The notes under the pieces were generated by a model. That model was given only the letters and a program-made list of their open reading frames with translations. It ran no database searches and had not been told where the DNA came from. Position numbers and translations under genes: made by a program. Source: a plasmid. From it: a DNA stretch of 64,000 nt. The stretch lies in sequence record NZ_CP092738.1; one strand, written 5' to 3'. This document shows, piece by piece, positions 36,852 to 46,078 of the stretch (position 1 is the first letter of the stretch; every line of letters starts with the position of its first letter).

Positions 36852-36937
36852 CCCCGCGTGAGTCGATCGAAGCGTGGTCAAGAAATTGAAATAACGGAAG
36901 AATAATATTCTAACAGTAAAATACAATTTCTTGACCG
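36852..36937. repeat. inter-cassette repeat with hairpin GGTCAAGAAATTG-N35-CAATTTCTTGACC (copy A)
   Basis: Direct read. Related copies at 43686, 45396 (partial), 45936 and a covarying variant at 40183. Confidence 0.8.
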
Positions 36938-36975
36938 CTGTATTGCCATCCTTAAACGTATAGAGATTTATTTTT

Positions 36976-37527
36976 TTATGATTGTATCGATGCTTTAATT
37001 TCTAAAATTTTTTTGCGTAACATTTTGGGAGAACAACCCGTAAATTTTAAACAAGCCCTATGAAAAGTTGTAATTGAGTTAAATCCGCTTTCGAAGGCAA
37101 TGTCCAAAAGCGTAAAACGTGAATTGCCAATTAAGATCAAACGTTTAGCTTCTTCTATACGATTGAAGTTTATAAAATCATTAAAACTTGTTTTAAGTCG
37201 TTTATTCAAATAATAAGAAGCCTGATGGGTAGAAAGACCTATTGCAGCCGCAAAATCAGGTAAGCGAATTTCTTCGTCTTTATAGTTTTTTTGTGCCAAA
37301 AACTCGTTTAATTTAAATTCGACTCTTTCTAGATCAATGTTTTGAAGAATATTCCTATCATTTTTGGTTTCGATTAATAGGGTTGAGCAGCTGGGAATCT
37401 TCAACGAAGACTTAAAAAAGAATGGCAGAATTTCGGCTATTGTCAAAAAATTTCGAGCGGTACCCAAAGACGTAAAATTAGATTTTACGATAAAATTCTT
37501 AATTTTTTGCATTTTAGAAACTGACAT
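36976..37527 (-). CDS. AraC-family regulator (short form; C-terminal HTH paralogous to 49540..50736)
   Basis: ...[27 protein letters not shown]...FESGFNSITTFHRACLKFTGCSP... (AraC HTH). Lacks the membrane domain of its paralog. Confidence 0.7.
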   Translation of the reverse strand: MSVSKMQKIKNFIVKSNFTSLGTARNFLTIAEILPFFFKSSLKIPSCSTLLIETKNDRNILQNIDLERVEFKLNEFLAQKNYKDEEIRLPDFAAAIGLSTHQASYYLNKRLKTSFNDFINFNRIEEAKRLILIGNSRFTLLDIAFESGFNSITTFHRACLKFTGCSPKMLRKKILEIKASIQS

Positions 37528-37643
37528 TTATATACCTATATAATGAATTTAAAATTTGAGTTTGGTCATATTGTATGATGCGTAGAGCAACATGTCAAAC
37601 TTAAAATATTGCATGAAGCAATGGTAAGAAACTTTAGAAAAAA

Positions 37644-38036
37644 ATGAAAGTAGATCAAGAAGTGGCAAAAAGATTCGAAACAGCCTTGGAATATCTTAAA
37701 GGGCACCAAGGAAAATCTCAAAATCATATTGCGAAGTCGATGGATGTAGCTTCGAGCACTCTATCAAGAATCGCTAATGGCAAGTTACCTCTTCTGAATA
37801 AAATGGCTGTTACATTTGAACATTATACGGGTATTTCTTCGACTTGGCTTTTATCTGGCGAAGGAAGTATGCTCGTAGAAGAAAAAGTTTTAAAAACATT
37901 CAGTGAAGAAGAGTTCCGCTTTTTTGTAAAGATTAAGAAAGACTCTGAATTGTTTGAACTTGTTCAAATGGTTTCCGGAATGAAAAAAGATAATTATGAA
38001 GTAATCAAAAGTTTAATCACTAAACTTAAGAAATAG
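37644..38036 (+). CDS. CI-repressor-like HTH protein
   Basis: HTH plus a WLLSGEGSM motif. Divergent from the AraC gene. Confidence 0.5.
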   Translation: MKVDQEVAKRFETALEYLKGHQGKSQNHIAKSMDVASSTLSRIANGKLPLLNKMAVTFEHYTGISSTWLLSGEGSMLVEEKVLKTFSEEEFRFFVKIKKDSELFELVQMVSGMKKDNYEVIKSLITKLKK

Positions 38037-38272
38037 ATTAATATTAACAATTACACATATAAAAGAAAAACCTTTAGGATAAAAATGGGAGTCAATTTCT
38101 TTCCAGAAAATGAATTATTGATCCAAAGAACGAAAGCTATTTTAATAAAGTTGAAAATACTTACATTTTGTTTTGAAATCTAAAAGATAAAATATTATAA
38201 ATTCTGAGTAAATTTTTTCCTTAGAGACTGAAACTATTATATAACTCTGAGTAAAATGTATAAAACAAAGGC

Positions 38273-43839: not shown

Positions 43840-44904
43840 ATGGGTGCAAACGTAGCTCCAGGAGTTCCTAGTATTCAAAATCCAGGGGTAGGTATGACGG
43901 GTGGTGGAAGTGTAGGGGGAATGCCAGTAACTGGAATGTATTTTTATCATCCCAATCATTTAGGTTCGATTACGATGATAACGGATGGAGCTGGAAATCC
44001 GGCTTCAGGACCAGAACCAGGGGTGAGTTACGTTTCTTATGAACCGTATGGTTCTATCATACGCAACGATTCTTATGGTCCTGATATATTTCGTTACAAG
44101 TTTACGGGTCAAATCGAAGACAAAGAGACTGGTCTTTACTATTACAAATCTCGTTTTTACGAACCTACGTTAGGCCGTTTCTTGCAAGCGGATTCAGTGA
44201 TTGCACCTGATTCTGTAAATGGTATGAATCGTTATATGTATGTAGATGGAAATCCTGTTAGTTATACTGATCCAAGTGGACACATTTCCGGCCCTGATAT
44301 GATGCACATGTTAAATCGTATCGTTGGTCATGCTATGGGGAAAGATTTTCATAATGGGAATAGTCCAAGTTTTAGCAGTATTGGAAAAGACCTTCATAGA
44401 AACGCATTGAGTAAAGGTATTAACAAATCCTTAAAGAAAATAGATACCTTTCTTGGAAAATCAGATATTGGAAGATTTATAAACAAAGGCTGGAGAGACA
44501 TTAGGCGAAGTGATCTTGGTACAGGATTTGACAAATATATCGGAAAGGATGGTATATTAGGATATGCTGGTGATCATCTAATTACTGCTCCTTTAAAACA
44601 TATGATAGAAGGTAAGGCGAGAGATGAAATTAAACACAAAAGCTACAAGGAATTAGTAAATAATTTATATTTTGAAGGTATAGCTGCTTATCTCTGCGGT
44701 AGACCTATGGATCCAAGTTATGCTGTAAGTAGTTTTATAAAAAGTAATATTATGTTACCAATATTATCAAAATATGTTGCAGATCATAAATCACACGATT
44801 TCTTTCCGGGGCAATCCTCATCCTATACAATGTTAAATATGGTGGCTGGTTCAGGTATGTTAAATCGAATTCAAGAGGGAATGGCGGAGGCTAATTGTCA
44901 ATGA
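43840..44904 (+). CDS. orphan RHS-core + toxin cassette 3 (toxin tip paralogous to the main gene tip)
   Basis: Starts at MGANVAPGV, which follows ..PWILA in the parent. RHS core through DPSGH plus the shared pre-toxin segment. The tip shares GFDKYIGK(N/D)GILGY(L/A)GDHL(V/I)TAPLK with the main gene. Confidence 0.8.
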   Translation: MGANVAPGVPSIQNPGVGMTGGGSVGGMPVTGMYFYHPNHLGSITMITDGAGNPASGPEPGVSYVSYEPYGSIIRNDSYGPDIFRYKFTGQIEDKETGLYYYKSRFYEPTLGRFLQADSVIAPDSVNGMNRYMYVDGNPVSYTDPSGHISGPDMMHMLNRIVGHAMGKDFHNGNSPSFSSIGKDLHRNALSKGINKSLKKIDTFLGKSDIGRFINKGWRDIRRSDLGTGFDKYIGKDGILGYAGDHLITAPLKHMIEGKARDEIKHKSYKELVNNLYFEGIAAYLCGRPMDPSYAVSSFIKSNIMLPILSKYVADHKSHDFFPGQSSSYTMLNMVAGSGMLNRIQEGMAEANCQ

Positions 44905-45383
44905 TTGTAAAAATAATTAGAACAATATTATATTATAACATTATTTCGTTATTTCTTGGATGTATAAACATAGATACGGGAATAGATGTTGCTGTAAGTC
45001 CTTCTGGTATTGATACCAACCGAGTTGTAAATTCAAGTGAATTTTATACATATGCAATGCAAGCATATACTGAAAAAATGTATTTTTGTGGCTTTACAGA
45101 TGCAGATATAGAAGCGGATTCGGCTTTTCCTTTATCCATATTTGTTTTGGGTGGTGACTTTAATGGTCTCGGTGGTGACCCATTGTCTACTTTCTCCTTT
45201 GCTCTATATTATACCGACTATTACTTAAAACGATCAATGCATGATTGTGGAAAGGCCATAATGGCAACGCCTTGTCAAGCAAGTGGGGCGCAACAAGCAG
45301 AGGCAATTCACTTATCTTTCTTGACCTCTTGCATTCCGGAAAAAGTAGTGTTCACAAAAAAAGGGGATGGAAGTTGGAAATAA
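44895..45383 (+). CDS. putative immunity lipoprotein, family X
   Basis: Overlaps the toxin stop. Paralog of 36349..36831. Confidence 0.55.
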   Translation: MSMIVKIIRTILYYNIISLFLGCINIDTGIDVAVSPSGIDTNRVVNSSEFYTYAMQAYTEKMYFCGFTDADIEADSAFPLSIFVLGGDFNGLGGDPLSTFSFALYYTDYYLKRSMHDCGKAIMATPCQASGAQQAEAIHLSFLTSCIPEKVVFTKKGDGSWK

Positions 45384-45454
45384 AAGAATCCCCTTCGCGT
45401 GAGCGATCGAAGTGTGGTCAAGAAAAGGAATAAGGGAAGAGTACTATTCTTAAA

Positions 45455-45904
45455 ATGTATAATCTAATTTATATTATTCTTATCCTTTCCGTATCATGCT
45501 CGGATGTGAATATAAACGGATACGGAGTAGATACAAAAGATATTGTAACGAGGGGACAATTTAAAACTGGTGTATTGCAGGCTTATTTATTAAAATATAA
45601 ATCTTGTATTTATCCTGATAATGATTCACTTGCTTCAGATGTAATATTTGATTCAATTTTACTAAGTGCTGATGATACGTCTACTAGCCTAGATATAAGT
45701 TTAGATAGGGCTGATTTCTGGACTAATTCAAGATTTAGAGAATATTATTACAAAGATGATATGGATACTTGTTCACGATCAGTATTATCTGTTCCTTGTC
45801 AACCAACCGTTGAAGATCAAGCAAAAGCATTAGCTTTGTCTTTCCTAAAAGACTGTCGTCCAGAGCGAGCAAGTTTTCGTGATAAAGGTCAGGGAAATTA
45901 TTAA
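45455..45904 (+). CDS. putative immunity lipoprotein, family X (extra copy)
   Basis: Paralog. Signal peptide plus SVSC lipobox. C-terminal KGQGNY. Confidence 0.5.
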   Translation: MYNLIYIILILSVSCSDVNINGYGVDTKDIVTRGQFKTGVLQAYLLKYKSCIYPDNDSLASDVIFDSILLSADDTSTSLDISLDRADFWTNSRFREYYYKDDMDTCSRSVLSVPCQPTVEDQAKALALSFLKDCRPERASFRDKGQGNY

Positions 45905-45935
45905 ACATATAATAAAAGTAATATTCGATGGCTTT

Positions 45936-46078
45936 CCCCCGCGTGAGTCGATCGAAGGGTGGTCAAGAAATTGGAATAACGAAAGAATAATATTCTAAAA
46001 GTAAAATACAATTTCTTGACCGGAGCTGAGAGCGCGACCCGGCACTAAGAATAAGGAAGAGTTTTGCCGGGGCACGCC
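45936..46078. repeat. inter-cassette repeat copy D
   Basis: Direct read. A partial copy lies at 45396..45440. Confidence 0.8.

Follow-up and report, generated by a model that had tools for sequence, protein, structure and literature searches.

A 64,000-nt stretch of Leptospira plasmid DNA (sequence record NZ_CP092738.1), referred to in its full length as the window, contains an RHS toxin-immunity locus whose cassette boundaries carry copies of a short hairpin element. The element belongs to a modular, structured repeat found in Leptospira, about 95-200 nt long, and forms a three-helix module, in which a closing helix (P1) encloses a 5' box, a 13-bp hairpin (hp1), a linker and an exchangeable second hairpin (hp2). 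It is best described as a structured cassette-leader repeat that is shared with a family of IS982-type MITEs (miniature inverted-repeat transposable elements). The intact form, here called E2-type after copy E2 of the window, is predicted to be the 5' end of the downstream RHS cassette gene. In the window itself, the element occurs mostly as non-coding relics. A first-pass annotation of the same DNA had described the hairpin and overlooked that the intact element is partly coding and that a third, closing helix covaries.

Aligned copies consist of five parts, namely the 5' box, hp1, the conserved linker (consensus GAGCYGAGAGCSCG, GAGCYGAGAGC(C/G)CG), hp2 and a short 3' segment. Five copies were found in the window (E1, E2, E3, the truncated E4p and E5; Table 1), with perfect 13-bp stems in E1, E3 and E5. 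The earlier claim of an element at each immunity block and orphan cassette is too strong: the left arm of E4p is incomplete, and cassette 4 and the immunity paralogs at 47.2-48.9 kb are not followed by a copy. At 47219-48900, four diverged small immunity-like gene copies (a 150-nt repeat family, 73-100% identical) follow each other with no element between them.

In E1, E3 and E5, the hp1 arm GGTCAAGAAATTG is accompanied by its exact reverse complement, while the variant arms AGTCAATAAATTG and CAATTTATTGACT occur once in the window, in E2. All hairpin sequences quoted in the first-pass annotation were recovered at their positions, and an arm search with up to two mismatches returned 12 matches compared to 3.27 expected, a number reached in 0 of 100 shuffles. 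E1, E3 and E5 fold with z = -4.4 (0/200 shuffles equally good), and E2 with z = -1.9 alone and z = -3.3 when the second hairpin is included. The arm versions identified were GGTCAAGAAATTG/CAATTTCTTGACC, AGTCAATAAATTG/CAATTTATTGACT, GGTCAAGTTATTG/CAATAACTTGACC and GGTCAATCAATTG/CAATTGATTGACC (left/right), and an unrelated 14-bp stem, CTGCAATGCACCAT/ATGGTGCTTTGCAG, was found at the hp1 position.

Covariation of hp1 was analyzed in 24 distinct copies from Leptospira plasmids and chromosome II that were gathered by sequence profile and not by pairing. Pairing was present in 99.4% of cells, four pairs were changed on both sides (27 cells), and pair 22-73 was seen as UA, GC, and CG. The covariation score of 0.272 compared to 0.102 ± 0.015 in shuffles (0/500 as high), and pairing fell to 41-48% when the partner was slid by one column. 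All five one-sided changes were G.U on the + strand. Variable columns accounted for 1 of 26 in the arms and 14 of 35 in the loop of non-coding family 1 (p = 0.001), and for 0 of 26 and 27 of 38, respectively, in the E2-type (p = 2e-9). The compensatory change noticed at first in the copy before cassette 2 therefore holds beyond the window, with arms far more conserved than the loop. Homology between type A and type B hp1 loops was weak (77/2000 shuffles as good) and was not retained.

The further closing helix P1 has 5 bp (5' GCGNN...NNCGC 3'), as the pentamer opening the box complements the pentamer after hp2. It reads GCGTG/CACGC in family 1, GCGGC/GCCGC in the E2-type, GCGTT/AACGC in form F2b, and GCGAA/TTCGC in copies bounded by terminal inverted repeats (TIRs). 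In a spliced alignment, for which the 3' pentamer was picked at the offset found in the P1 comparison (within ±2 nt), P1 was paired in 96.8% of cells, the two inner pairs took three and four Watson-Crick types, and the covariation score was 0.51 compared to 0.09. Homology between copies starts at GCG and ends at CGC because the unit is a helix-closed three-way structure.

Inside P1, hp2 is swapped wholesale in place: family 1 has a GC-rich 12-bp stem, E2 has an 11-bp stem that closes a 52-nt loop, and a third form has a stem of 5 bp around a GAA loop. The extra CCCGGC/GCCGGG stem reported for the copies before cassettes 3 and 4 was confirmed, with GGAGCTGAGAGCGCGACCCGGCAC occurring at 43770-43793 and 46022-46045 only. 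As the family-1 hp2 hardly varies, it offers little evidence of its own: one lineage carries two adjacent compensatory pairs, the rest is invariant, and 14 of 500 shuffles scored as high, which was judged too little. An origin of hp2 as a degenerate rhs core copy (GCGCGACCCGGC vs GCGCAACCCCGGC) was also rejected, with an alignment score of 20 compared to 16 ± 2 and 18 of 300 shuffles as good.

The E2-type box ends in GGAG, a putative ribosome-binding site located 8 nt upstream of a TTG that makes up the last three bases of the hp1 left arm and is in frame with the downstream rhs fragment. In this frame, the hp1 loop and right arm encode M-(G/R/K)-L-(K/R), about 12 hydrophobic residues and FNLLTG/AESP, resembling a Sec-like signal peptide. 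The linker and hp2 encode PVSEKQERSSNVEYNETLKYKTTFLRK, the P1 3' strand encodes K-P-P, a conserved linker peptide (..VSEKQERSSNVEYNETLKYKTTFLRKPP..) spans the hp2 region and the P1 3' strand, and the following short tail, PYLLIP..(S/P)LE(T), reads in frame into rhs fragments of many lengths. The TTG frame is stop-free and hydrophobic (Kyte-Doolittle 1.2-2.3) in 18 of 18 E2-type copies, all of which share the M-G/R-L-K/R start, the 12 hydrophobic residues and the LLTG/AE motif, and the loop stays hydrophobic despite 27 of 38 variable columns. Of the alternative frames in these 18 copies, the second is interrupted by 3-5 stops in all of them, and the third, mostly open, is less hydrophobic in most copies.

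The TTG frame was open to the rhs junction in 22 distinct copies, and the tail was in frame with rhs at 10 of 10 sampled junctions, which used 8 different rhs entry points. On L. noguchii-type Rhs, the leader is joined at no fewer than ten different positions between amino acids 1272 and 2216, and most of ten examined joins lie at or just before the Tyr/Phe that opens a repeat unit. A short-hp2 variant drops linker codons in frame (SPVREAEPPY). In L. weilii (L041:28750-28942), an unrelated ATG-initiated signal peptide (MNRILLLTILLHVALQ; MNRILLLTILLHVALQIEAK) takes the place of hp1 and the cassette keeps the downstream SPVSEK..FLRKPPYPLIP leader, representing a natural swap of the hairpin region. 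The RefSeq coding sequence start at 25587 in L. noguchii plasmid CP092115.1 is the E2-type TTG, and predicted proteins beginning MGLK..FNLLTGAESPVSEK occur in L. kirschneri, L. interrogans, L. alexanderi, L. santarosai, and L. noguchii. Two other origins of the coding parts were discarded: native Rhs sequence upstream of the entry points is unlike the tail after P1, which does not fit a diverged rhs, and the main Rhs proteins carry different signal peptides, which does not fit a copied N-terminus.

In the E1, E3, E5, type-B, and F2b forms, GGAG is lost and a stop codon directly follows the TTG, which makes them non-coding. These forms retain the helices, and their differences from the E2-type are compensatory (E1 itself is 3'-truncated). 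As non-coding copies keep the helices, structure or arms matter independently of coding.

Three-way comparisons identified the copies as block mosaics. L005_8225 is E5-like through hp1 and most of the hp2 loop and then E3-like over the hp2 right arm and core start, L024_12002 takes its flank, box and hp2 loop from one copy and hp1 from another, and L021_12753 switches parent between hp2 and the rhs junction. Judging from these patterns, cassette flanks are exchanged via crossovers in the conserved blocks, presumably by homologous recombination. The recombination hotspot proposed in the first-pass annotation is thus matched as a pattern.

The family-1 junction J2 keeps a related tail (SNPYLL..), and the tail-less J1 is derivable from J2 via a deletion between CTTG repeats. 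Among 35 copies, none was located inside an otherwise intact rhs with rhs on both sides, a layout that would have pointed to MITE insertion with later MITE-MITE recombination. A constant 3' end representing a defined DNA end was considered and is weakened because most E2-type copies carry the in-frame tail, which separates P1 from rhs. A lipoprotein-signal-like stretch, ATPALILSLFVVTSLPGCGVLPGTGGKDG, lies within Rhs at ~42300-42380 (~35295-35375 in the main gene), ahead of the conserved C-terminal core, and is similar to the lipobox found at the N-terminus in the second Rhs family of Leptospira, FSCFLFTTTTCGILPGKKGK. Both J1 and J2 map to this region.

The module core (box, hp1 and linker with its own P1) also lies inside longer, TIR-bounded MITEs. 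In CP092115.1, a copy outside the arrays (L030:2987-3157) is a 171-bp insertion in an IS5-family transposase gene, flanked by a 7-bp TAATATA duplication, and in the filled-versus-empty comparison the site is empty in L031 and L032. The two ends of the insertion, ACGTGAGTTCGGC...GTCGAACTCTCGT, match as inverted repeats at 11 of 13 positions. The MITE ends ACGTGAGTTCGGC / GTCGAACTCACGT fit AC-N6-T and AC...GT and are shared by an annotated intact IS982-family insertion sequence (IS) in L037. For the IS982 family, an AC-N6-T end pattern and commonly a 7-bp target duplication are described (PMC7335449), and Leptospirales are reported to be exceptionally MITE-rich (PMC11602168). The full IS982-family IS (L037:1698-2706) and the MITE at L030:2987-3157 occupy the same TAATATA site of the same IS5 transposase gene in two L. 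noguchii plasmids, which implies a hot spot or an in-situ conversion of IS into MITE.

IS982-type TIRs were found in L030:2987-3157, in L033-L036, and in the window at 4209-4326, while TIR-bounded relatives (right half) were identified in 23 records at 49 places, 8-9 of them on L. interrogans chromosome II among housekeeping genes. With 118-210 bp, no transposase gene and multiple dispersed copies, these elements have the size and copy pattern of MITEs. The MITE of the window, 32 kb from the RHS array, combines P1 GCGAA/TTCGC with box/linker-like sequence and has no hp1. All these plasmids are rich in Rpn-family genes, which frequently adjoin MITE copies (L033, L034, L036). The five RHS-array copies of the window have no IS982 terminal repeats and instead start with GCGNN and end with NNCGC, and no target duplication was found in the flanks of E1-E5 and other array copies.

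The MITE version encodes MNLKTIVVLCFLYAIY followed by a stop, with a loop one base shorter than in the E2-type. As it is a frameshifted copy of the E2-type frame, this suggests that the MITE captured the gene start and not the reverse. IS982-type MITEs would have picked up the core and spread its frameshifted version outside RHS loci. Because the core lies inside MITEs at sites unrelated to RHS, the hairpin is not an RHS-specific device, and one of the outcomes that the first-pass annotation had named as refuting its reading has largely come about.

Other replicons were reached via exact-protein look-ups and a plasmid collection; look-ups with P0028 and P0036 returned no match. The family-1 form was found in 27 Leptospira plasmids, in L. 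noguchii (L010) and, on the chromosome, in an RHS locus of a different L. interrogans strain (L005). The E2-type form was far more common, in 45 Leptospira plasmids at 150 places, with L. interrogans, L. kirschneri, L. noguchii, L. mayottensis, and L. weilii as hosts. The complete 100-kb L. noguchii plasmid CP092115.1 alone contains 14 copies at RHS cassette boundaries, all on the + (rhs) strand, and two further copies outside the RHS arrays. The literature search yielded nothing relevant on a Leptospira RHS orphan element or on the element sequences.

In the E2-type, the start codon and the spacer of the ribosome site would be buried in the perfect 13-bp hp1 stem, and P1 and hp2 would tie the 5' untranslated region to codons about 24-63, so that folding would most likely prevent or gate cassette translation. 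Translation would then be kept off or made conditional by a leader acting in cis, and the conserved module DNA between otherwise unrelated toxin/immunity cassettes would provide a joint for cassette exchange. Gating of translation and secretion are predicted functions. Given the observed structure, covariation, coding capacity, distribution, mosaics and MITE relationship, a start-codon-sequestering leader that is also a recombination joint is given an even chance. A bolder version is quite improbable: a portable secretion-leader riboregulator, in which the self-contained P1-hp1-hp2 unit would provide ribosome site, start, signal peptide and sequestering switch, would be joined in frame with rhs fragments where one YD repeat borders the next, via structure-guided recombination or MITE mobilisation, and would make silent tips expressible, gated and secreted.

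Several points weigh against a leader function. The upkeep of helices in non-coding copies is the least explained of these, as a translational role cannot account for it, and perfect inverted repeats may also be maintained by DNA-level template switching or gene conversion. No intact leader-rhs fusion is present in the window, where E1, E3 and E5 are non-coding and the open reading frame (ORF) of E2 stops after 58 codons, has no tail and is out of frame with the rhs fragment from ~40344. The signal peptide, judged by composition only, is putative, and the in-frame rhs joins may result either from selection for translation or from deletions with codon-aligned YD motifs at their ends. The element is also absent from the L. 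weilii loci L011 and L013-L020, from L. sp. 96542 and from the LE1-type prophage array, and is therefore not required for RHS arrays in general. A scan of species-representative genomes with the 5' box pattern (CGCGTGAG-N1-2-GATCGAAGNGTGG) gave four chance matches in unrelated high-GC bacteria. Finally, the pattern used for the P1, junction and frame tests needed recognisable arms, which under-samples badly decayed copies.

Among the alternatives, a purely selfish repeat is rather unlikely. The module would then be the interior of an IS982-mobilised MITE, its inverted repeats kept for transposition or by palindrome correction or gene conversion, and the array copies would be hitch-hiking relics with accidental homology. 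The filled and empty sites with the 7-bp TAATATA duplication and 11/13 TIRs, the intact IS982-family IS with the same ends, the dispersed copies beside unrelated genes on chromosome II and plasmids, the family MITE in the window itself and the MITE richness of Leptospirales (PMC11602168) are all in line with it. However, the RHS-array copies have a single orientation and neither IS982 terminal repeats nor target duplications, and the subfamilies confined to RHS arrays (family 1 and E2-type) show compensatory states of their own in P1 and hp1. The coherent E2-type ORF with its signal-peptide profile, compared to the frameshifted MITE version, likewise argues for capture by the MITE. In addition, we know of no need of a DDE transposase for an internal three-way structure, which counts against this alternative.

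Transcript-level punctuation, with the folded module as a terminator, insulator, processing site or 3' stabiliser of the upstream rhs-immunity message, is less probable still. It would agree with the fixed orientation relative to rhs just after immunity genes, with the one-sided changes that are all G.U on the sense strand, with the helices retained in non-coding copies and with the position of the terminal copy E1 between convergent genes. Yet of the two sites that a terminator scan of 36300-47300 returned, neither coincides with an element, hp1 loops have 35-39 nt and loops overall 35-54 nt, and hp1 and hp2 are not followed by a T run, so the terminator named in the first-pass annotation has no terminator-like site at any copy. 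Rfam 15 gave no element match at gathering score and none to E = 5 in 36700-46300 (a chance CRISPR-repeat match lies elsewhere), MITE copies stand upstream as well as downstream of genes, and E1 has no hp2 and no complete P1. By reading, no convincing -35/-10 pair of a sigma-70 promoter was recognized inside the element (promoter-like sites show no enrichment, with 42 compared to 36.6 expected). The orphans would thus not be kept silent by a terminator, as had been suggested; since the TTG of the cassette gene lies inside the E2-type hairpin, silencing, if any, would act on translation. A structure-specific recombination site, in which a P1-bounded folded single strand is recognised by a cassette-joining recombinase in an attC-like manner, is very improbable. 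It would account for several junction types (family-1 J1, the E2 of the window and F2b) in which the rhs fragment starts 0-1 nt after the P1 3' strand. It is also in line with a unit whose exact limits are set by a covarying helix, in which GCG/CGC is conserved and the inner pairs vary, and with single orientation and flanks exchanged in mosaics. On the other hand, no recombinase domain, tyrosine or serine, was found in 30 scanned window ORFs (not every small ORF), attC R''/R' core sites are absent, and the outer helix is GCGNN/NNCGC and not AAC/GTT. Moreover, a conserved in-frame tail of 36-47 nt parts P1 from rhs in most E2-type copies, tail-less junctions are derivable by deletion at CTTG-type or YD-codon microhomology, and the copy with rhs on both sides is missing.

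The window is a plasmid-type Leptospira region with ParA, a DUF3102 protein, a winged-helix Rep-like protein, umuD and a Y-family polymerase, several IS elements and Rpn-like nucleases, and its arrangement is almost identical to that of L. interrogans plasmid pLiSL31. The locus is built as an orphan Rhs cassette array, in which a full-length rhs is followed by units of core fragment, toxin tip and immunity gene (Table 1). E1 has no linker, hp2 or P1 3' strand and is located between an immunity gene and a convergent AraC-type gene. After the second rhs copy, the order is E3, orphan 3, two immunity genes split by E4p, E5, orphan 4 and the immunity paralogs. The rhs core fragments recur at 42399, 43825, and 46077 with 95% identity, those of orphan 3 (ATG 43840) and orphan 4 beginning directly 3' of E3 and E5, respectively. 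E4p runs into the immunity gene 45455-45904, and an identically placed relic occurs in other strains (L005-L009, L021).

Table 1. Coordinates of element copies and associated features in the window.
Feature	Position	Strand	Details
118-bp MITE	4209..4326	-	TIRs ACGTGAGTTCGGC (minus strand) / ACATGAGTTCGAC, same TIR family
Decayed IS982-family IS	4330-5223		adjoins 118-bp MITE; transposase C-terminus LRKRAIIESANDELKNICQIQHTRHRS still readable
Main full-length rhs	29463-36365		SpvB, FG-GAP, RHS_repeat domains
Immunity gene of main rhs	36349-36831		precedes E1
E1	36856..36937	+	terminal, 3'-truncated family-1 copy, non-coding; P1 5' strand GCGTG 36856-36860; box AGTCGATCGAAGCGT; hp1 arms 36876-36888 / 36924-36936; 35-nt loop
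AraC-type, XRE-type, 215-aa, 7TM gene block	36976-39842		between E1 and E2
E2	40163..40342	+	coding-type copy; P1 GCGGC 40163-40167; GGAG 8 nt upstream of TTG 40192-40194 (last 3 nt of hp1 left arm); hp1 left arm 40182-40194, right arm 40233-40245; loop and right arm encode (M)GLKIMLCITFLSFNLLT; linker GAGCCGAGAGCCCGG; hp2' GGTTTCGGAGAAA..TTTCTCCGAAAGCC 40262-40337; P1 3' strand GCCGC 40338-40342
Second rhs copy, 5'-truncated	homology from ~40344		= 33339 in main gene; 99% identical
E3	43690..43826	+	complete non-coding family-1 copy; P1 GCGTG 43690-43694; hp1 arms 43709-43721 / 43757-43769; linker GGAGCTGAGAGCGCG; hp2 GCGCGACCCGGC..GCCGGGGCACGC; P1 3' strand CACGC 43821-43825
E4p	45397..45430	+	truncated relic: P1 GCGTG, box, first 10 nt of hp1 left arm
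E5	45941..46078	+	complete non-coding family-1 copy; P1 GCGTG 45941-45945; hp1 arms 45961-45973 / 46009-46021; linker; hp2; P1 3' CACGC 46073-46077

A direct duplication of 7005 bp (33339-36365 / 40344-43331) places the 5'-truncated rhs behind the AraC/XRE/215-amino-acid (aa)/7TM block, which recurs inverted downstream of the array at 49540-53461. Plasmids L028, L039, and L041 are segmented alike, with array, regulatory block, E2-type element and truncated rhs. A fragment of the cassette-4 toxin is duplicated (46923-47092 / 47936-48105), with the four small immunity-like gene copies after it. Further away, a tandem duplication of ~5.8 kb at 8000-17400 carries PD-(D/E)XK/Rpn-like genes at 8358-9215 and 14075-14980, and a YhgA-like gene is located at 17292-18182 in this Rpn-like duplication region. 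Two full-length matches to Rfam RF02857 'Leptospira sRNA 30_255' occur on the minus strand at 10520-10741 and 16349-16570.

Cassette boundaries of Leptospira plasmids thus carry one conserved structured module, which is absent from some arrays. If the gating holds true, the arrays of pathogenic Leptospira would consist of secreted toxins that can be switched one by one and not of inert orphans, and if the riboregulator reading were true, it would represent a new way to build and control polymorphic-toxin repertoires. The module would also illustrate the way in which a MITE takes up part of a gene's start and disperses it across a genome. Such repeats explain the fragmentation of RHS loci in Leptospira draft assemblies and annotated starts inside a 'repeat'.

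Orphan cassettes of Rhs and contact-dependent inhibition (CDI) systems are usually seen as silent spare parts without start signals of their own. Orphan Rhs/CDI toxin-immunity arrays have reportedly been described in Salmonella, E. coli, and Serratia. The arrays studied here are alike in having C-terminal tips and immunity genes after a full-length rhs and a conserved core piece that permits recombination. Those orphans were described without a translation start of their own, whereas here the intact module would supply ribosome site, start and signal peptide. Rickettsia palindromic elements are said to be palindromic repeats that lie in frame inside genes and are translated. They insert inside genes, while the Leptospira module is an N-terminal leader with the start codon included in the hairpin. 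ERIC/IRU, Correia, BOX, and REPIN are short, modular, multi-copy stem-loop repeats, for some of which compensatory substitutions in the arms are reported. The Leptospira module is likewise short, modular, multi-copy and folding but unrelated to them in sequence, and none of them is known to us to mark the borders of polymorphic-toxin cassettes or to specify a signal for secretion.

The TIR-bounded relatives share AC...GT ends, the 7-bp duplication and the lack of a transposase with IS982 IS/MITEs such as ISLbp3 of L. borgpetersenii, whereas the RHS-array copies comprise only the internal module without terminal repeats or duplications. Neisseria intergenic mosaic elements (NIMEs; dRS3/RS) reportedly flank silent cassettes and were proposed to provide homology for exchange; the mosaic blocks are alike, but sequence and architecture are unrelated and NIMEs lie outside the cassette reading frame. 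The 5' leader of Leptospira lig is said to be an RNA thermometer that sequesters ribosome-binding site and start codon. It has no homology to the module, whose perfect 13-bp stem and two further helices are probably too stable to be melted by temperature alone. Integron attC sites resemble the module in that structure is more conserved than sequence, in being helix-bounded with covarying positions, and in occurring once per cassette in a single orientation. The module differs from them in having no R/L core sites, in having no integrase nearby and in overlapping the coding start of the cassette.

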